64,000 bases of DNA from an uncultured Candidatus Saccharibacteria bacterium. GTDB lineage: Bacteria; Patescibacteriota; Minisyncoccia; Phycocordibacterales; DATDWN01. Location: the NCBI GenBank assembly GCA_964468795.1, contig CAYXWL010000001.1, positions 147,587 to 211,586 of the forward strand, in the 5' to 3' direction. A program made the position numbers and the translations under genes. Below the pieces are notes generated by a model. That model worked only from the letters and a program-made list of their open reading frames with translations. It made no database searches and was not told the origin of the DNA. This document shows, piece after piece, positions 4,968 through 35,985 of the stretch; positions within the stretch are counted from its first letter, which is position 1, and each line of letters begins with the position of its first letter.

Positions 4968-5180
4968 TCAATTCATGACTATATCCTGAAAACTGTCTCC
5001 CAGAAGCATGCTGAGCTCATCGAGGCCAATCGACAGCCTCCTTGCAAGCTCGACCGAGAAATTTCCATTGATGTAACACTGTAGGCGAATGTCCATGAGA
5101 TCGTCCCTGTCTACCGGATTGCCTGCATAAGCAGACTTTAGCACAGCAGTTGCATACTCTATGCAGAAAACACGACTCAT
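4968..5180 (-). CDS. hypothetical small protein (GC-rich, carries a GGAGG-type RBS)
   Basis: About 50% GC ORF (MSRVFCIEYATAVLK...) with AGGAGGGCTC-ATG ribosome-binding site, inserted between rplY and fba, whose genes lack SDs; no recognisable domain. Confidence 0.3.
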   Translation of the reverse strand: MSRVFCIEYATAVLKSAYAGNPVDRDDLMDIRLQCYINGNFSVELARRLSIGLDELSMLLGDSFQDIVMN

Positions 5181-21625: not shown

Positions 21626-21650
21626 GGAGGATAGGAGAATTTCGATCCCT
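21626..21650 (+). other. att-like degenerate copy of the tRNA-Ser(GGA) 3' end (candidate attL)
   Basis: ggaggataggaga (13/13 identical to tRNA-Ser 35900..35912) then atttcgatccc vs ttcgaactcc in the tRNA; same orientation as the tRNA copy at the other end of the island. Confidence 0.4.
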
Positions 21651-26866: not shown

Positions 26867-29095
26867 CTACAACTCCAAATGTTCCCAGTCTGTCCAATCA
26901 TTCTCTTTCAAATTTTTACCATCGCCTTTGTAGACCATCCAACGGCCAGAAAAGTGGCTAGGGTCTGTATTAGCAACAATACCACCAAAGAGTTTCTGCT
27001 TCTTGCCAGCTCTGGCTGTGTAGGCCACCAAACCGCTTGATTTGGCTCCAAAATCGGCTAAATAGGCTCCGTGAGGGTCAAAAAGGCCGATACTGCCATC
27101 TTTCATCATTACCACGAAATCAACATAGAACGGAGCCATTTCATCGCCTAATTTATAAGGCACGGCAAAGAAGGTCCCGTCTCTTTCTCCGTTTTTAAAC
27201 CACCATTCCACCTTGTTATTTTTCTTATCCAAAAATTCAATAAACGCTTTTTCAGACTGCCAGCGTTTATCTGAAAAGAATGGCTCCATAACAGATTTAT
27301 TGACCTCCATTTCTTCGTAATTTTCGCCGAAGACCATTTTCTCTGGCACATCCCATTCACTTTGGACCAGCTCGTTGTTGCGTTTTTCCGTAGACGAGAT
27401 ATAGGTGATTTTGGCATCGTCAATGACTGCTTCAAAAAGAGATTTGTTATCCTCGCTCAAAACAGTGTTGATTATCTCTTGGAATTTTTCCAATTTCGGC
27501 ATACCAAGCTCTTTATCAAAAAACTGGTAGATTGACTCTTTGAGACGACCTACTGACCTATCTTCTGGATGAAATGGTGAAAGGTTTCGGTAAATGAAAT
27601 AGTCAAATAGTCTCTGTAAATCAGCATCACTTCCCATATCAACGAGCACCGTAGCTTTAATGTGTTCACCAGCGATAGTGTCTATGTTTTCTGTTCGCCA
27701 ATCGGAAATGAAAGCCGAATGGACTTTCTGATTTTTCAGTTTGATTTTATCCGCCAGTTTTGACTGTTTGGCTTTCTCCAAAAAGAGAGAAGTGAAAAGT
27801 GGGCTCAAGCGGGTCTGCTCACGATGGCGTTTGCTATGGACCGATGAAAGATTTATCGGCTCATATTTTGGCGACCTGTTGCTGATATGGATAACCACAT
27901 AATCCCGCCCGATGTCTTCCTTGATTTCAATGCCTTCAAGGTTGGTGTAAACATAAGCATAATTGAGCATATCGTCCTTGTAGTAGCCGATTTCTGGTTC
28001 TGGCACACGCATAATCCTGCCAATGGTTTGAATAGAGAAAATGGGACTGGACCATTCTCGGAAAAGGACCAAAATTTGAGCTCTTGGGCAATCCCAACCC
28101 AGAGCGATAGCTTGTTTGAAAATAAGGACTTCTACTTCGCTGTCGTTGCGTTTGATATTGTCGGAATTTTCTTTATTCTCTGCCAAGTAGAAAGCTAGCT
28201 TGCCATTTTTGGTGGTGATATTGTGTTTGTCTGCCAGTATCTTTACAAGCATTTCTTGTCTGTCATCATCACCTTGACCACGCCTGTCTGGAAGCTGGAT
28301 TAGGAGAAGTGGATTAACTGAAATTTTACCCGCTTTGTATTTCTTGGCTAGGTCTTCTCGTTTTTTTAAGGCAATGTCCAAAATAACTTCATCAGAGCTG
28401 TTAGCCAGTTCGCTTTTGACTATATCTGAATTGTTTTTCTGGACAACATTTTTGAAATTCTCATTGAGGACCACCGCTTTCTTTATCATCTCCTCGGCTT
28501 TGACCTCGGCAATGTCCACGCTAACAATCTTGTCTGGGTTAGCCATTACAGGAGTAGCGGAAACTTCAATAGTCAAATCCGGCTTGATAGCGGAAATAAG
28601 GTTTTGTGAGGTTTCTGCTTGAGCGTGGAAATGACTCTCGTCTATGATGAGAATAATTTTTCTGTCAGCTTCCCGTGTTCGGCTGATTATATTTGAAAGA
28701 TTGTTGTCTTGCTCGTTATCTCGTATGTAAATGTTGCCGTCCTGTCTGATACTTTCCCAGTTGAAAAAGAGAACCTCGTTTTCATCTATTTGCCTGTCGT
28801 TTAAGTCTTCAAAGAAAGAACATTCCATCGCCCGTGATTTTTCAAAATACAGCTCAATTTTTTCTTTGCTCTGCTCGTGGAGCTGACGAGGAGCGGTCCA
28901 GATGAATGAGCAAGGGGTATGTCTTTTGTCATCGGCAAATCTTGTTAGAAATTCAGCCACCATTATGGTCTTGCCCGAACCAGTAGGAGCTTTGAAAACT
29001 AGCTTTTTCCCATCACTAATTTTCAAAAGACGAACTGCATCATCTAGCAATTCTTGGGTATGTTCATCTTGATATGTTGTTAGCTTAAAAGCCAT
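26867..29095 (-). CDS. res: Type III restriction endonuclease Res subunit (SF2 helicase-like)
   Basis: Walker A KAPTGSGKT and DExH box IIDESH; immediately downstream of mod and translationally coupled (29097/29095). Confidence 0.7.
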   Translation of the reverse strand: MAFKLTTYQDEHTQELLDDAVRLLKISDGKKLVFKAPTGSGKTIMVAEFLTRFADDKRHTPCSFIWTAPRQLHEQSKEKIELYFEKSRAMECSFFEDLNDRQIDENEVLFFNWESIRQDGNIYIRDNEQDNNLSNIISRTREADRKIILIIDESHFHAQAETSQNLISAIKPDLTIEVSATPVMANPDKIVSVDIAEVKAEEMIKKAVVLNENFKNVVQKNNSDIVKSELANSSDEVILDIALKKREDLAKKYKAGKISVNPLLLIQLPDRRGQGDDDRQEMLVKILADKHNITTKNGKLAFYLAENKENSDNIKRNDSEVEVLIFKQAIALGWDCPRAQILVLFREWSSPIFSIQTIGRIMRVPEPEIGYYKDDMLNYAYVYTNLEGIEIKEDIGRDYVVIHISNRSPKYEPINLSSVHSKRHREQTRLSPLFTSLFLEKAKQSKLADKIKLKNQKVHSAFISDWRTENIDTIAGEHIKATVLVDMGSDADLQRLFDYFIYRNLSPFHPEDRSVGRLKESIYQFFDKELGMPKLEKFQEIINTVLSEDNKSLFEAVIDDAKITYISSTEKRNNELVQSEWDVPEKMVFGENYEEMEVNKSVMEPFFSDKRWQSEKAFIEFLDKKNNKVEWWFKNGERDGTFFAVPYKLGDEMAPFYVDFVVMMKDGSIGLFDPHGAYLADFGAKSSGLVAYTARAGKKQKLFGGIVANTDPSHFSGRWMVYKGDGKNLKENDWTDWEHLEL

Positions 29096-29096
29096 A

Positions 29097-30791
29097 TTAT
29101 TTTTTGAAAATACGCCTATATACCCGCAAAATAACTTCGGGTATCGGGGCTACTGTTACTTTTTCTTTGACATCTTCAAATTCTTCTTCAAAGGTGTCAT
29201 CGCCGAGAGAGAAAATGTAAACACTCCATTTTCCGCCAATTTTGGCGATGTCTTTTTTGAGAGACGAGATAGAACCTTCGTCAAAAAGAATGGCTGTATA
29301 TTGCTTTTCATTCTTGAAAATTTTTATGGCCATGGTTTCCTTCACTTCCTCAAAAGTGTTTTCTCTGACACAGAGCATCTCCGTAGCTTCTCTGGTTAGA
29401 GTCTCCTTGTTTTTATCGTTTGGCTCGGCTTCTACGAAAGCCGTGCGGAAGTATTTCAAATTGCTAGGTATGCCAGTTATATCTTTGTAATCTTTATGAC
29501 CAGCGATAACAGATTTAATTCGTGGATAGCATACTTCTGTTGCGATGCCATTTTCATTGTTGGTGCAGAGAATAAATTGGCGTAATCCGTTATCTCTTTT
29601 ATTTAGCAGTGAGACAGCGTGTCCAGTAGTTCCACTTCCAGCAAAAAAGTCCAAAATCACCGCATCCTTTTTATCTTTAGCTGTGGCTAATAGACATTCT
29701 TCAACCGCATATAATGACTTTGGGAAAGGAAACATTGTGCCAGTCAGCCCATTAACCATCTTTGAACCATACTCGTTTGCATCATATTTAGGTCCAACCC
29801 AAACAGTCTTATATGGAGCCTCATCTTTGGAGCGATATATTTCAAACCTGCCTTTAGAAGTCTTCTTTATGTGCAACTCTGAAATTATTTCTTCAACAGT
29901 ATTTCTTGAATAAGACCATTTCCTTTCAATACTGTTTATGTCTATAGGCCAAACCTCAAATACACCCTTTTTTATTTCAGTAGTTTGTTTTTTGGGATGA
30001 AATTTCTCATCTGCCACTTCGCCTACACCAATAATTTTTTCGCCAGATACTATAAATGGGTAAAAACAGGTTTTTGCTGTATGACGAGGGGAATTGCTTC
30101 CGTCAACTCTGAAATTTCTCACCAGAGTTTCTTCACGAAGTGCATTACTTATATATTTTTCCTTGGCATCTGGATAAACAAAAACAGCATACTCGTGATT
30201 ATATGAAAAATTTTTACCCTGAACTCCTCGGGGATTGTGAACCACTGAAATTGAATCAACTTTTTTGCCTACAAAAATTTGTTTAAGCAGGAGTACCAGA
30301 TTAGCGTGTTCGTTTTCATCAATGGCACAAATCAGACAACCATTCTTTTTCAAAAGATTTTTCGCAAGGACCAATCTTCTCTCCATCATGCTCAACCATT
30401 TGCTATGTCTGTATGAGTCATCTTTATCTACATAATTATTGTTATATTTCCAATTTTTTGCTCCCGTATTGTAAGGCGGGTCAATATAAATAACATCAAT
30501 CTTGCCTTTATGTGTGTAGTTTAATACAGAAAGAGCGTGGTAATTATCTCCTTCAATAAGTAGGTTTGTGGGGGTATTTTTATTTTTGAAAATATGCTTA
30601 TTTTTTACCTCTTTCAAAACAGGCAATTCAGTATTGCATTGCTCAACAACATCTTCTATCTTTTCCTCCCAAACCAATCCATATTTTTTGCGTTTTCGTA
30701 AACGCTCAATTTCTGCAACAAATTGCTCTTTGGTCCAATTACCATATTTATCTGTTTCCACCACAATAGGTGATTGTAATTTTTCAGGCAT
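29097..30791 (-). CDS. mod: Type III R-M Mod subunit (beta-class N6-adenine DNA methyltransferase)
   Basis: DPPY motif IV (IYIDPPYNTG) precedes motif I (LDFFAGSGTTGHA), the beta-class order typical of Type III Mod. Confidence 0.8.
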   Translation of the reverse strand: MPEKLQSPIVVETDKYGNWTKEQFVAEIERLRKRKKYGLVWEEKIEDVVEQCNTELPVLKEVKNKHIFKNKNTPTNLLIEGDNYHALSVLNYTHKGKIDVIYIDPPYNTGAKNWKYNNNYVDKDDSYRHSKWLSMMERRLVLAKNLLKKNGCLICAIDENEHANLVLLLKQIFVGKKVDSISVVHNPRGVQGKNFSYNHEYAVFVYPDAKEKYISNALREETLVRNFRVDGSNSPRHTAKTCFYPFIVSGEKIIGVGEVADEKFHPKKQTTEIKKGVFEVWPIDINSIERKWSYSRNTVEEIISELHIKKTSKGRFEIYRSKDEAPYKTVWVGPKYDANEYGSKMVNGLTGTMFPFPKSLYAVEECLLATAKDKKDAVILDFFAGSGTTGHAVSLLNKRDNGLRQFILCTNNENGIATEVCYPRIKSVIAGHKDYKDITGIPSNLKYFRTAFVEAEPNDKNKETLTREATEMLCVRENTFEEVKETMAIKIFKNEKQYTAILFDEGSISSLKKDIAKIGGKWSVYIFSLGDDTFEEEFEDVKEKVTVAPIPEVILRVYRRIFKK

Positions 30792-30794
30792 GAT

Positions 30795-30849
30795 GACTAT
30801 GAGTACCTACACCACATAATGTATCACAAAAATAGTGGTACTCATAGTC
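30795..30849. promoter_or_regulatory. C-box-like operator: perfect 13-bp inverted repeat GACTATGAGTACC…GGTACTCATAGTC
   Basis: Arms at 30795..30807 and 30837..30849 separated by 29 nt, in the mod / C-gene divergent region; GACT…AGTC symmetry as in known controller-protein operators; ends 38 nt upstream of the HTH gene. Confidence 0.45.
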
Positions 30850-30886
30850 CGTCGCCTTATAGACATCAGACCTCTAGGCTTAAGGC

Positions 30887-31108
30887 ATGAGCAAGAGTAG
30901 CCCCATTTTAAAGAAATTTGGAAAGCGAGTAATAGAACTCCGCTTACAAAAAGGCTTCACTTCCCAAATTGCTTTAGCTAATAAAGCCAATATGGACCGA
31001 ACCTATATTGGTGGCATTGAGCGAGGTGAAAGGAATATCTCCTTGGTTAATATTGAAAAGCTGGCAAAGACGCTTGGTATCAGTTTGGAAGAATTGTTCA
31101 GACTCTAA
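30887..31108 (+). CDS. XRE-family HTH protein, controller (C-protein)-like
   Basis: 73 aa, Cro/C1-type HTH (…QIALANKANMDRTYIGGIERGERNISLVNIEKLAKTLGISLEELF). Confidence 0.75.
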   Translation: MSKSSPILKKFGKRVIELRLQKGFTSQIALANKANMDRTYIGGIERGERNISLVNIEKLAKTLGISLEELFRL

Positions 31109-31139
31109 ACAAGGTGTATTCTTAAGTGAAAAGAACGCC

Positions 31140-32354
31140 ATGATTTCTAGCAATCTAGAACGCCATTTTCATAGCTTTATTGAGGAGACAAATCTTCTTA
31201 ATTTTTCTAAAGGTTTAGCCGAATATTTGGAGTATGTATTCAGTGTGCCAGAACTAAAAAATGTTTTTTCACAACAGCTCGGGGAAAGAAATGCTGATTA
31301 TGCAAAATTGAATGAGCTTGCTGAAAAAAATCTTGCTGAAATTAAGGAGGCAAAAACAAAACTTATTAAATGTTTAAAAAAGAGAAAAATTTATATTGAT
31401 GACTTGAATCGTATTTTTACTCACCCCCACAACACAGGAAGGAATTTTTTTGAAGAGCTGGATGCTTTTGAAAAAGGAGATGGTTTGTATTCTAGTATGT
31501 CATTGGCTGATGTAATTGATAATTATCTTTTTGATATGGCAGTAAATTTACTCAATGCTGGTTATCAAGAAGATGTTGAGGAATTTTTAGCTAGACCGGA
31601 CGATTATACTGTGAATAAGGTATGTCGTAATGATTATATTATGATTGATGGTCATCCAGGGTCTTTTGTGTTCTCTAGGGCATATTTTGAGCGTCAAAAT
31701 ATGAAAAAGTTTATTGAACAAGGTAGAGTATTAAAAACTTGGGGAGAATTTGAAAAACTTTATCAATTTAGACAAGGATATAAAGAAAGCTTGGGTATAC
31801 ATGACCCTATGAAAGATTGGGAGCATGGCCCGGGAGAATTTGGTATTGATGAGGATTTGATATATATAGCCAGAATCCATAATGAATTGAATAACTTGGT
31901 AAAAAAACATGGACCATTTCCGCGAGAAGATAACCCCTTGGAATATTTGTCGCAGAGTAAATTTGTCCAACCAGTCAAAACGGTTCACAATATTTTGATG
32001 CTTGTCGCATCAAGTAACAAAAAGGAAGAAAAAAATGAATCCGGTCTTTGGATTTCTAAAAATAAGACCACAGGTGAGTATTATTTTGATGATAACAAAA
32101 TCCATTTTCCTAGCCCAAATGCAAAATATGTAAAAATTTTTGAAACCGTGTATGAAATTATCCCGAAAGGTGGTCGCATTTCTTATTCCCAAATTACTAA
32201 ATATAAGAAGTCAGAAGTGCAGAGGGCGTTGACTGGAGAAAATGCCAACTTTTTTCATTATGTTAAATCGGCAAGACGTACTCCCCAGAAAGGCATCCCA
32301 CTTTTTCATGCATCAAGCGACGGAAAAGAGCTGATTTTCAATAATCAGCGTTAA
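31140..32354 (+). CDS. hypothetical 404-aa protein downstream of the C-protein gene (candidate restriction/abortive-infection effector)
   Basis: No recognisable motifs; start taken at ATG 31140 (the longer ORF-track start overlaps the HTH gene); followed by terminator 32384..32412. Confidence 0.5.
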   Translation: MISSNLERHFHSFIEETNLLNFSKGLAEYLEYVFSVPELKNVFSQQLGERNADYAKLNELAEKNLAEIKEAKTKLIKCLKKRKIYIDDLNRIFTHPHNTGRNFFEELDAFEKGDGLYSSMSLADVIDNYLFDMAVNLLNAGYQEDVEEFLARPDDYTVNKVCRNDYIMIDGHPGSFVFSRAYFERQNMKKFIEQGRVLKTWGEFEKLYQFRQGYKESLGIHDPMKDWEHGPGEFGIDEDLIYIARIHNELNNLVKKHGPFPREDNPLEYLSQSKFVQPVKTVHNILMLVASSNKKEEKNESGLWISKNKTTGEYYFDDNKIHFPSPNAKYVKIFETVYEIIPKGGRISYSQITKYKKSEVQRALTGENANFFHYVKSARRTPQKGIPLFHASSDGKELIFNNQR

Positions 32355-32383
32355 CTCATCTCATCTCGTTTGTGGATTATCTG

Positions 32384-32412
32384 AAAAATCACCGCTCCAG
32401 TGGTGATTTTTT
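32384..32412 (+). terminator. rho-independent terminator
   Basis: aaaatcacc-gctccagt-ggtgatttt followed by a T-run. Confidence 0.6.
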
Positions 32413-32603
32413 GGCTACGAATAAAGAAAAAATATTTAAACAGAAGAATCCAGAGAAGTACAGACGACCTATCAGACTTGAAATAATGGCTTTAAGCCAA
32501 GCTTTTCCTTGTACGACTTGGAACGCCCAAAACATGCAAGCCAATTTTTTGCTTGACCTGTCCCAGGCGTTCGGGATGGTTCAAGCAAAAAGCGGGCTTC
32601 ACT

Positions 32604-32780
32604 ATGTTACCAGAAGAAGCCATTAAAGAATTTAAAATTCTTTACAAAAAAGTTTTTGGTATAGAGCTCACAGATAGTGAGGCAATTTTTCGTGCCAATA
32701 ATCTTTTGAGACTCTACAAAGTCATTTACAAGGCATCTCCTGCGAACATGGTCAAAGGAACGCAAAATGGCCAGGTATGA
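32604..32780 (+). CDS. small hypothetical ORF
   Basis: 58-aa ORF (MLPEEAIKEFKILYKK…) in the island; weak support. Confidence 0.2.
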   Translation: MLPEEAIKEFKILYKKVFGIELTDSEAIFRANNLLRLYKVIYKASPANMVKGTQNGQV

Positions 32781-33177
32781 CCCACGAAAAATTTCTCAAC
32801 ACAAAAGTTACACAATCAAAGAATTGTCAGAGCTTTTGGAAATGAGTGAAAAAACCTGCGGTCGGTGGATTGAGCAGGGGTTGCCGACTGTTCCAGGTAG
32901 CCACAAGCCGATTCTCATACTAGGTGATGATGCAAAAATTTTTATTAGAAACAGGAATATTAAGGTCGTAATTAAGTTAAAACGCCATGAGTTTAATTGT
33001 TTTAAATGTAAGTGCCCGAGACGGGCCAAGAAGGGTTCAATAGGTGTATCCGGGAACATAAAAAGGGGGTTGTGCAGTGTTTGCAACTCAAAAATGTGCA
33101 AGACAATTCACCCTACCAAAAAGGACTATAAGATACCGCCTACTCCTACACAAATGTCCATGTTTAACAATATTTAA
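32767..33177 (+). CDS. HTH + zinc-ribbon DNA-binding protein (excisionase/regulator-like)
   Basis: YTIKELSELLEMSEKTCGRWIEQGLP helix-turn-helix, then CxxC…CxxC; immediately upstream of the recombinase genes. Confidence 0.45.
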   Translation: MARYDPRKISQHKSYTIKELSELLEMSEKTCGRWIEQGLPTVPGSHKPILILGDDAKIFIRNRNIKVVIKLKRHEFNCFKCKCPRRAKKGSIGVSGNIKRGLCSVCNSKMCKTIHPTKKDYKIPPTPTQMSMFNNI

Positions 33178-33190
33178 TCTTATCACTATA

Positions 33191-34288
33191 ATGACAAATT
33201 TCAGCTACAAAAATGAGCAAATTAAGAGGCAGTTTTTTGAGCATCTAAAAGGGGCCGCTGGCTTCGCCGATGAGTCCATAGATAAGTTTGCGGAAGCGGT
33301 TTATCAATGGCAGATTTTCAGCGGAGATGAGGATTTTGAAACTTTCAATAAAGAGAAGGCATCTAAATTCTGTGAATGGCTCAAAACAAAAGAGGCAAAG
33401 ACCAGTTCTGGCAAGCTGTCTTTGCCAACCCAATATAATTATCTCCGTAGAGTTAAGAAGTTTTTCACTTGGCTTACTGAACAACCAGATTACAGAAAAA
33501 GTATTCGTAAAACAGATGTGGATTTTTTGAGATTATCCAAAAAGGATGCTCGTATTGCTACTTCCGGCACAACAAAAAGGATACCGACTTTTGACGAAGC
33601 TAGAAAGGTAATAGAAAGCATAGAAATTGAAAATGAAATTGACCAACGAGATAGGGCCATCCTTTCCTTTGCCCTTATTACTGGTATGCGTATTTCAGCC
33701 ATTTCAACTTTGAGAATGAAGAATTTTGACAGAGAAAGCGAATTGATTGACCAAAATCCTGGCGATGGAGTGCAGACCAAATATTCAAAAAAGATACTCA
33801 CTACTTTTTTCCCGATAGGATGGGATGGACCAAAAAAATACTTTCTTGAATGGTACGACTATCAACTTGCTCGAGGAGCAAAACCAAATGAACCGATTTT
33901 TCCTTCAACTAAAAAAGGATTTTCAGAAAAAAGTTTTAGCAAGACGCTTGTGAGCGAGGATTTTTGGAGCAGTTCCGGTGGTGCAAGAAAAATCTTTGAG
34001 AAAAGGTGTATAGATGCTGAAGTGCCATATTTTCATCCTCACTCTTTCAGACATTTGATTGTGTCTGTAATGAGCAAGACCAGGTTGACGGAAGAAGAAA
34101 AGAAAGCAGTCAGTATGAATCTTGGCCATGACAATGTGGGCACCACTTTCGGCTCGTATGGCTATGGTGGTATGAGTTTGCATGATGCTGTAAATATCGT
34201 TAAAAAAATCACTTTAAACCAAAATGACGATATTCAGATTTCATCGGACGAAAGAGATGTTTTGCTAAAACTATTGAAGAAATTATGA
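33191..34288 (+). CDS. tyrosine-type site-specific recombinase / integrase
   Basis: C-terminal catalytic region with HPHSFRHL (HxxR) and LGH…Y; SAM-like N-domain. Confidence 0.8.
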   Translation: MTNFSYKNEQIKRQFFEHLKGAAGFADESIDKFAEAVYQWQIFSGDEDFETFNKEKASKFCEWLKTKEAKTSSGKLSLPTQYNYLRRVKKFFTWLTEQPDYRKSIRKTDVDFLRLSKKDARIATSGTTKRIPTFDEARKVIESIEIENEIDQRDRAILSFALITGMRISAISTLRMKNFDRESELIDQNPGDGVQTKYSKKILTTFFPIGWDGPKKYFLEWYDYQLARGAKPNEPIFPSTKKGFSEKSFSKTLVSEDFWSSSGGARKIFEKRCIDAEVPYFHPHSFRHLIVSVMSKTRLTEEEKKAVSMNLGHDNVGTTFGSYGYGGMSLHDAVNIVKKITLNQNDDIQISSDERDVLLKLLKKL

Positions 34289-34305
34289 TATAATTAAGTA
34301 TCACT

Positions 34306-35925
34306 ATGAACGCCACACCAAAACTCATTTATGGTAATTATTGCAGAAAATCCACGGAGTCGGAAGACCGTCAGATGCTTTCTATTGATTCACAAATTGA
34401 TGAAGGGAAAAAGATTGCTGATACGCTGGGCATAAAAATTGCTCCAAATCATCTCCTCACTGAATCTAAATCAGCTAAAACCACAGGAAAGAGGGCTAAA
34501 TTTGAGGAGATGTTGAGAATGATTGAAAAAGGTGAAATAAACGCCATCATCGCCTGGCATCCAGACAGACTTTCAAGAAATTCCATTGATGCCGCTCGGC
34601 TTATTGAACAGATGGATAAAGGCAACCTTATAGAAATAGTAACTCCCGGCCAGGCCTACAAAAATACTCCGATTGATAAGTTTATGCTCATGCTCCAATG
34701 CAGTCAGGCCAAAATGGAAAATGACAAAAAGGGCGTTGATGTAAGAAGAGGATTGCATAAAAAAGCCAGTCTTGGAAAGTATCCAGGACCGGCCCCTATC
34801 GGCTATAAAAATGATAAATATGCAGAAAAGGGAGATAAGGTTCCTCTGCCGGACGAAGAAAGATTTCCACTTGTCCGAAAAATGGTAGACCTTATTCTCA
34901 CGGGAAATTACACAGTTGCCCAAGTCTGGAGGATGGCAAAAGATGAATGGGGTGTAACTATGCCAAGCGGAAAGAAAATCGGCAGGGCTACTGTTTACAG
35001 AATTTTTTCAAATCCTTTTTATTACGGAAAATATGAGTACCCTCTAAAAAGCGGAAATTGGTATGACGGAGTTCACACCAAATTGATGGAGCCAGAAGAA
35101 TACGACAAAATCCAGTTTCTCCTTGGTAAAAAAGGAAAACCTCGCCCAAAATCTCACATCTTTGATTTTACTGGCATGATGCGATGCGGAGAATGCGGAG
35201 CGGCTATCACTGCCGAGTTGAAAATTAAAAAACAGAAAAACGGCAATATTCATTCCTATATCTATTACCACTGCACCAAACGGGTAAATCCAAATTGCTC
35301 GCAAGGGTCCATAGAAGAAACGGAGTTGAAGAAACAAATCATTAAGGAAATTCAAAGCATAGAAATTCCGTCTGAATTTCACAGCTTTGCTATGAAGTGG
35401 TTCAAAAAAGAAAACGAAAAAGAATCCAAGGAGCAAAACTCAATCGTTGATAGCCAGCAAAGATCATATAAAGCTTGTCTTGCGAAGATTAGTGGTCTTA
35501 CCGATATGAGAGCCGGTGGAGAAATTTCAGCAGACGAATTTGCTGAAAAACGGTCCGTACTTTTGTCTGAAAAGAAAAAACTAGAGGACTTGTTTGCCCA
35601 GACCGGTAAGCGAGTAGACAAATGGGTTGAGACTGGAGACAGGATGTTTGATTTTATTGAGAACGCCAAATTCAAATTTGAAAATGGTCCGATTGAAACA
35701 AGACGGGAGATTCTTTCTACATTAGGTTCGGACCTCATCTTGAAAGACAAAATATTGAGTATTGATATAGACAATTCACTCTTTACATTAAAAAGAGTCT
35801 CAAAAACCTTGCACGGCATAAAGAAACGGTTAGAACCTGTAAAAAATGGCGATAAACAAAAAGAATTTGACCGTTTGTGCAGTCAAAATCTCGTAATGCG
35901 GAGGATAGGAGATTCGAACTCCTGA
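34306..35925 (+). CDS. large serine recombinase
   Basis: N-terminal resolvase domain (YCRKSTESEDRQ…), recombinase domain and zinc ribbon (CGECGAAIT…YYHCTKR); its last 27 nt overlap tRNA-Ser. Confidence 0.8.
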   Translation: MNATPKLIYGNYCRKSTESEDRQMLSIDSQIDEGKKIADTLGIKIAPNHLLTESKSAKTTGKRAKFEEMLRMIEKGEINAIIAWHPDRLSRNSIDAARLIEQMDKGNLIEIVTPGQAYKNTPIDKFMLMLQCSQAKMENDKKGVDVRRGLHKKASLGKYPGPAPIGYKNDKYAEKGDKVPLPDEERFPLVRKMVDLILTGNYTVAQVWRMAKDEWGVTMPSGKKIGRATVYRIFSNPFYYGKYEYPLKSGNWYDGVHTKLMEPEEYDKIQFLLGKKGKPRPKSHIFDFTGMMRCGECGAAITAELKIKKQKNGNIHSYIYYHCTKRVNPNCSQGSIEETELKKQIIKEIQSIEIPSEFHSFAMKWFKKENEKESKEQNSIVDSQQRSYKACLAKISGLTDMRAGGEISADEFAEKRSVLLSEKKKLEDLFAQTGKRVDKWVETGDRMFDFIENAKFKFENGPIETRREILSTLGSDLILKDKILSIDIDNSLFTLKRVSKTLHGIKKRLEPVKNGDKQKEFDRLCSQNLVMRRIGDSNS

Positions 35926-35985
35926 AGGGATTGCTCCCTTACCCGCTTTCCAAGCGAGCGCACTAGACCACTATGCGAACCCTCC
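35899..35985 (-). tRNA. tRNA-Ser (anticodon GGA), class II
   Basis: GGAGGGT/ATCCTCC acceptor stem, anticodon loop TTGGAAA, long variable arm, T-arm AGGAG-TTCGAAT-CTCCT. Confidence 0.7.

Follow-up and report, generated by a model that had tools for sequence, protein, structure and literature searches.

The 64,000-nt stretch of DNA analysed here, which comes from an uncultured Candidatus Saccharibacteria bacterium and is referred to below as the window, carries a small controller (C) gene between a restriction–modification (R-M) operon and the core genes of an integrative element that ends in a tRNA-Ser gene. The R-M genes are read leftwards, on the minus strand. The first gene of the operon, mod (29097–30791), encodes a Type III-like N6/N4 DNA methyltransferase of 564 amino acids (aa; Pfam N6_N4_Mtase, 1e-27; PADLOC MTase_III, 6e-72), and its start at 30791 is backed by homologues that open with MPQKL or MPEKL. 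It abuts res (26867–29095), which encodes a Type III-like restriction subunit of 742 aa with a superfamily 2 (SF2) helicase (Pfam ResIII, 1e-18; PADLOC REase_III, 6e-18). The preliminary description of this locus, prepared from the DNA letters alone, had recognized a Type III mod–res pair on this strand, and the Type III profile matches, with a Type III-type Mod domain directly followed by an SF2-helicase Res, bear this out. On the plus strand, the C gene (30887–31108) encodes a controller protein of 73 aa whose recognition helix carries DRTY, and 31 nt beyond it begins the gene for a 404-aa protein (31140–32354). As had also been described, this open reading frame is followed by a terminator, visible as a hairpin with a T-run at about 32387–32412 (plus strand) in the sequence and in the terminator scan. 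No terminator is predicted inside the 31-nt gap.

The controller protein and its putative operator

The 73-aa protein matches the PADLOC Control_protein profile (1.2e-22) and the HTH_3 family (2.6e-13), and among relatives of solved structure its best match is C.AhdI (E 9.7e-16), followed by C.BclI (4.9e-13) and C.Esp1396I (2.2e-10). Its residues 36–43 read MDRTYIGG, which fits the recognition-helix motif HRTY or DR(T/S)Y defined for such proteins (PMC2175313). Judged by its sequence, this helix-turn-helix (HTH) protein is a true member of the PvuII/AhdI class of controller proteins, and the inverted repeat that precedes its gene is its putative operator. The preliminary description had proposed both identities, and the predicted binding agrees with the C.AhdI and PADLOC matches and with the C-box consensus considered below; it had also placed the gene 38 nt past the repeat, the actual distance from the right arm being 37 nt. 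Relatives of C are numerous (609 at E <= 1e-8), many of them being 73 aa long and 63–80% identical, and those whose source is named belong to lineages of the candidate phyla radiation (CPR), namely Yanofskybacteria, Gracilibacteria, Taylorbacteria and Patescibacteria. The window does not contain a C-R operon, in which C is co-transcribed upstream of the endonuclease gene, as it is the 404-aa gene that lies downstream of C and res stands behind mod on the other strand. C systems that lack such an operon are known, for example Kpn2I (PMC12707154).

The arms of the repeat, GACTATGAGTACC (30795–30807) and GGTACTCATAGTC (30837–30849), are complementary at 13 of 13 positions across a spacer of 29 nt, just as the preliminary description had stated. 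When the window was simulated 100 times with a first-order Markov model, inverted repeats that were perfect over 13 bp or more and had a spacer no longer than 60 nt turned up 0.15 times per window on average; moreover, the repeat is kept in seven independent loci outside the window. The arms are not half-sites, each of them containing a full 11-bp C-box of the PvuII/AhdI type, TACTCATAGTC. Inside the right arm lies C-box 1 (O_L, TACTCATAGTC, 30839–30849), which is identical to the native PvuII box 1 (PMC2175313), and directly behind it come the spacer CGTC, with its central GT, and C-box 2 (O_R, GCCTTATAGAC; spacer and box, 30850–30864). The published operator of the PvuII family has the form GACT-N3-AGTC-N4-GACT-N3-AGTC with a conserved central GT, the spacer CGTG being typical for DR(T/S)Y proteins (PMC2175313); the two-box operator of the window, TACTCATAGTC-CGTC-GCCTTATAGAC (30839–30864), fits this consensus at 13 of 16 half-box positions and has the central GT. 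The left arm contains a lone, O_M-like box, GACTATGAGTA (30795–30805), which is the reverse complement of TACTCATAGTC and lies 3 nt off the mod ATG. In an alignment of the regulatory region from seven loci (A4), O_L-CGTC-O_R is invariant, as are CGTCGCCTTATAG at the spacer and C-box 2 and the pattern GATGAC.AT..GTA of the lone box.

Two further elements of this region may be promoter signals. Between the boxes, on the minus strand, lies the predicted extended −10 element of the mod–res promoter, TGATACATT (30818–30826), of the form TGnTAnnnT, whose TG, TA and final T are invariant in the same alignment. On the plus strand, a −10-like hexamer, TAGGCT (30875–30880), conserved as TAnnCT (T90, A91, C94 and T95 of the alignment are invariant), is separated from the C start codon by 6 nt and may belong to the C promoter. 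This proximity predicts a leaderless or near-leaderless C mRNA, and leaderless C genes have been described by Sorokin et al. (PMC2632904). A rightward sigma-70-like promoter, ATGACT-16-CATAAT, which relatives keep only in part, is given no weight here. The idea that the repeat arms have a fixed helical phasing is rejected, since the distance between boxes varies from 35 to 45 bp, start to start, across the loci that carry these elements. A scan of viral contigs for the operator pattern gave no match.

Recurrence of the cassette beside methyltransferase genes

Together, the three C-boxes and the C gene make up a cassette of about 310 bp that recurs in at least seven other CPR loci with 71–74% DNA identity. 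The homology is bounded by the start codon of the divergent gene (the mod ATG in the window) on one side and by the C stop codon on the other. In the window and the seven further distinct loci of our census (L050, L053, L056, L057, L061, L064 and L065), a DNA methyltransferase gene is divergent from C in eight of eight cases. Its product is a Type III-like Mod in the window (where Res follows), L053, L057 and L061, a D12 methyltransferase followed by a HaeIII-family nuclease in L050, an N6_Mtase in L056, a Type IIG fusion in L065 and a decayed methyltransferase in L064. Downstream of C, in contrast, the loci differ: the 404-aa protein of the window is replaced by proteins of 402 aa in L050, 361 aa in L053 and 98 plus 348 aa in L065, by a CapH/CapP-like XRE protein with an M78 peptidase in L056, by a 763-aa reverse transcriptase in L057 (PADLOC RT_UG19, 4e-51) and by nothing in L061 and L064. 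No kinship of the 402-aa or the 361-aa protein with the 404-aa family was detected (hhalign probability <1%). Since the methyltransferase is always divergent from C and the downstream gene is variable, the conserved functional partner of C appears to be the methyltransferase promoter and not the downstream gene. The 404-aa gene, which had been presented as the partner of C, does not hold this position, the constant neighbour being the methyltransferase gene.

In L061 to L064, the cassette (C at 5001–5222 in L061) adjoins an operon of a Type III-like mod, two small genes and res, and no mobile-element core lies downstream. The methyltransferase of L064 has shrunk to 262 aa, yet C and the boxes are retained. 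Considering its sharp limits of homology, the cassette is, on sequence grounds, a portable module of about 310 bp that seems to have been shuffled among closely related element cores.

The association with such cores raises an alternative, namely that C acts mainly as an immunity-type, cI-like XRE repressor of the core operon of the element, recombinases included, its link to R-M being secondary. A serine-recombinase core indeed lies downstream in six of the eight distinct C loci (window, L050, L053, L056, L057 and L065), and in L056 a CapH/CapP or ImmR/ImmA-like pair directly follows C. The XRE/cI family also includes the controller proteins, and homologues of C have previously been reported next to genes of mobile elements (PMC2632904). 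However, the cassette and its methyltransferase do without a downstream core in L061 to L064, cassette homology ends at the C stop codon, the core relatives L001, L045 and L048 have no C, and the terminator-like hairpin separates the 404-aa gene from the recombinase genes. We therefore regard a principal role of C in repressing the element as quite unlikely.

The interpretation that we favour, and consider likely, is that the C cassette, placed between the R-M cargo and the core genes of the tRNA-Ser element, represses mod–res and regulates itself, and that the 404-aa gene stands outside the R-M system, probably on the C transcript.

The 404-aa protein and the element core

A word-indexed search returned only six relatives of the 404-aa protein. 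An exhaustive HMMER search extended the family to 211 clusters (50% identity), and a profile built from a six-sequence alignment was used to retrieve its loci. Proteins of this family comprise two domains, of which the N-terminal one spans residues 1 to ~300 and the C-terminal one ~290–404; the latter is found also behind unrelated N-termini, including that of a reverse transcriptase (P0122). In the AlphaFold2 (AF2) model (pLDDT 86.8, pTM 0.65), the N-terminal region (1–298) is all-alpha, and residues 301–404 adopt the sheet, three-helix and wing topology of an OmpR/PhoB-type winged helix, resembling known domains of this kind in structure. With Foldseek, the model had no match in PDB or BFVD at E <= 0.001, and PADLOC, Pfam, NCBIfam and PHROG hold no family that matches the protein.

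According to the preliminary description, the 404-aa protein would be the gated payload of C, either an orphan restriction nuclease sharing the methylation by Mod or a toxic or abortive-infection effector expressed with delay. Its gene does stand where classical C-R operons carry the restriction enzyme gene, co-transcription with C is probable, and the slot behind C shows the hypervariability of restriction enzyme genes. The slot of L057 (5348–7639) is taken by the defence-type reverse transcriptase mentioned above, which has a C-terminal winged helix, and P0122 similarly joins a reverse transcriptase to a C-terminal domain of the 404-aa type. The properties of the protein itself speak against a nuclease: neither the AF2 model nor the fold searches nor the family alignment disclosed a nuclease fold or a conserved set of acidic and lysine catalytic residues, and the invariant residues of the family (L6, Y29, G141, F178, W201 and H283) are not a nuclease signature. 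In particular, PD-(D/E)xK and HNH nucleases gave no fold match. A HEPN RNase was rejected because the Rx4-6H pattern is not conserved, the R/K expected seven residues before H283 being V in the 404-aa protein, and a match to RNase_HII (Pfam E 2e-4, below the cut-off) is spurious, as the residues that it covers are predicted to form a single long helix. Together with the lack of any family match and with the fact that mod–res is self-contained in relatives without a gene of this type, these observations make the payload interpretation distinctly doubtful, and its nuclease form is not upheld by the structural comparison.

The genomic distribution of the family points in the same direction. Among about 10 distinct loci that were read, the 404-aa homologue heads a module composed, in this order, of the homologue, a small DUF5659 or s75-like protein, a protein of ~400–530 aa or a tyrosine recombinase, an HTH_17 protein and a large serine recombinase. 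In these loci, mod–res lies near the homologue only in the window and L044, and C only in the window; there is no consistent linkage of the family to a cognate methyltransferase, most homologues occurring where neither a methyltransferase nor C is present. The association with C and methyltransferase genes that the preliminary description had led one to look for is thus not a property of the family. As judged from these sequences, the 404-aa gene fills the variable first slot (‘X domain plus winged helix’) of a serine-recombinase element core, and its product most likely binds DNA and serves the element in a regulatory or accessory capacity. A non-nuclease effector in a variable slot driven by C seems rather unlikely.

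How the gene is expressed can be considered in the light of its closest relative, L001, which is collinear with the window over 31130–35901 with 72% DNA identity. The homology begins 10 nt before the 404-aa ATG and hence excludes C, mod and res. In place of C, L001 has a gene for a TrmB-family regulator (L001 779–1543) with a strong sigma-70-like promoter, TTGACA-N17-TAATAT; it is co-oriented with the 404-aa homologue and lies 48 nt upstream of it. One could argue that the juxtaposition in the window is incidental, C regulating itself and mod–res only and the 404-aa gene, with its own promoter, abutting the cassette after modules were shuffled. This would account for the tight and unique 21-nt junction (31109–31129) that separates two independently conserved blocks, and it accords with the normal expression of the family without C and with L061, where C needs no downstream gene. 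Nevertheless, only 10 nt upstream of the ATG are common with L001, so that no conserved promoter travels with the gene, the gap behind C contains no predicted terminator, and in L001 the slot is again found behind a co-oriented regulator. A purely incidental arrangement is for these reasons unlikely, and the interpretation retained here is that the 404-aa gene, although outside the R-M system, is probably read from the C promoter. The earlier proposal that C controls this gene consequently stands in so far as co-transcription is plausible, whereas a role of the gene as the designed target of C is not supported.

The rest of the element core (32553–35925, plus strand) was delineated with Pfam, PHROGs and the collinearity with L001. 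It encodes a small protein (32553–32780), a 136-aa HTH_17 and Zn-ribbon protein (32767–33177), a tyrosine recombinase (33194–34288; Pfam, PHROGs) and a large serine recombinase (34306–35925) with Resolvase, Recombinase and Zn_ribbon_recom domains (Pfam). A tyrosine and a large serine recombinase are thereby found side by side in a small element core; in other branches of the family, the tyrosine recombinase is replaced by a protein of ~400–530 aa or by a Toprim protein. The right junction of the element is a tRNA-Ser(GGA) gene (35898–35985, minus strand), which overlaps the 3′ end of the serine recombinase gene and is the sole match in an Rfam scan of 20–38 kb. Relatives end likewise in tRNA-His, -Asn, -Ala and -Asp, a layout found in L002, L010, L050, L053, L014 and L015. 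A tentative attL candidate is a 13/13 direct repeat of the 3′ end of tRNA-Ser at 21626–21638 (plus strand), which is intergenic and is followed by a T-arm-like sequence (E 0.12, weak when taken alone). If this repeat were attL, the element would measure ~14.3 kb and its cargo would include NUDIX, kinase-like and ITPase/Ham1 genes. No tRNA fragment was found at 31100–31140, which argues against an attL just upstream of the 404-aa gene, and base composition fails to delimit the element.

The R-M genes are best read as cargo of this element, because the arrangement of R-M beside the core recurs at different tRNAs. CPR relatives of the pair are 50–63% identical in Mod and mostly 62–70% identical in Res, and in L014, L015, L017, L022 and L026 they are divergent from a serine-recombinase module that is not accompanied by C. 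With 742 aa, Res falls short of the usual length of a Type III restriction subunit. Its residues E615, D659 and K665 are invariant in eight relatives, a canonical PD-(D/E)xK motif was not seen in it, and a comparison with PDB sequences gave no match.

Another feature of the core is the heptamer GAACGCC, of which six of the eight copies in the window fall within the 4.5-kb core (31133–31139, 31158–31164, 32521–32527 on the plus strand, 32566–32572 on the minus strand, 34308 and 35661). One or two direct copies lie at the start of the slot gene (31133 and 31158 in the window), and a conserved, intergenic inverted pair, GAACGCC-N38-46-GGCGTTC, lies just past it (32521–32572). This layout is common to L001, L065, L045 and L048, independently of differences between the slot genes, and makes the heptamer a candidate operator or cassette-boundary site. 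One might go further and imagine the C cassette as a shared two-way timer of CPR elements, which would shut the R-M cargo down after entry into a new host and switch on, with a delay, the gene in the hypervariable, GAACGCC-bounded slot, be it a member of the 404-aa family, a UG19-type reverse transcriptase or another gene. Although we find this idea doubtful, accessory or defence genes under the control of C would, if it were true, constitute a new class, and the slot might be a locus at which the tyrosine recombinase of the element exchanges cassettes site-specifically.

Proposed regulation and comparison with known systems

If the cassette functions as we favour, mod–res would be driven by the leftward extended −10 (30818–30826) between the boxes. 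The lone box would then fall at about +6 to +16 of the mod–res transcript and O_L over its −35 region, positions from which bound C would repress mod–res. The C gene would have its own weak, probably leaderless promoter, which, as in AhdI and PvuII, would be activated from O_L and repressed from O_R. Upon arrival in a naive host, mod–res would fire first and would then be throttled as C rises. Because mod and res form a single operon, the circuit cannot delay restriction (R) behind modification (M); in place of an M-before-R delay, it would provide a burst of R-M expression at entry and throttling later. The 404-aa gene, which the 31-nt gap without predicted terminator places probably under the C promoter, would be expressed with a delay and in dependence on C.

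Several considerations weigh against this interpretation or parts of it. The promoters, the start sites and the sign of regulation that it assumes derive from sequence and from the AhdI, PvuII and Esp1396I precedents. The lone box is ~50 nt from the methyltransferase start in L061 and L064, as compared with 3–5 nt elsewhere, and this offset, along with the variable spacing of the boxes, means that the geometry is not rigid. The 404-aa gene could have a promoter of its own inside the C open reading frame. Its product may possess an enzymatic activity of an unrecognized kind, the N-terminal fold being without a significant match, and the UG19-type reverse transcriptase that fills the slot in L057 keeps an effector role alive. 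Finally, the 13-nt repeat at 21626–21638 is the only candidate for the left end of the element.

The textbook example of how the timing of a Type II R-M system is controlled is the controller protein. The window C resembles C.AhdI and C.PvuII in the similarity of the protein, closest to C.AhdI, and in its DRTY helix. The operator TACTCATAGTC-CGTC-GCCTTATAGAC fits their double-box consensus with central GT, box 1 being that of native PvuII, and the predicted weak −35 overlapping box 2A and probably leaderless mRNA are further similarities. Contrary to those systems, no restriction enzyme gene stands behind the window C, res being part of the divergent mod–res operon; the methyltransferase start is adjoined by an additional, lone box; as R-M partner, the window has a Type III-like system and relatives have Type II or Type IIG systems; and an integrative element houses the cassette, in a bacterium that is likely to belong to the CPR.

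The lone box may be compared with the third operator, O_M, of C.Esp1396I, which acts on the methyltransferase promoter: in the window, too, a separate site for a single dimer would lie at the promoter or leader of the methyltransferase gene. Repression of mod by C would have its parallel in C.Kpn2I and C.EcoRV, which repress the M promoter, and the predicted promoters are divergent or overlapping, as in those systems. Unlike in these cases, repression of M in the window would also hit R, as both are in one operon. As for the 404-aa protein, it differs from OmpR/PhoB-type proteins in having neither a receiver domain nor a match at the sequence level, and its N-terminal 300 residues form an orphan all-alpha fold.

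The present analysis defines a two-domain protein family, together with a gene slot of variable content, in the integrative elements of bacteria that are poorly understood and for the most part uncultured. It also connects the C class and its operator to Type III-like, Type II and Type IIG systems whose operons are M-first. In a review of 2025, Type III does not figure among the systems with C proteins, which are given as Type II and, in one case, Type I (PMC12707154). As an M-before-R delay is impossible in M-first operons, the circuit would act on mobile elements as a burst-then-throttle device. C-protein homologues associated with mobile-element genes were reported by Sorokin, Severinov and Gelfand in 2009 and taken as vestiges of insertions into R-M systems (PMC2632904). 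The window shares with those cases a C-family gene, a PvuII-like double-box motif and adjoining recombinase or mobile-element open reading frames; it differs from them in that the order R-M, C and element core recurs with four kinds of R-M and in elements located at several different tRNAs.

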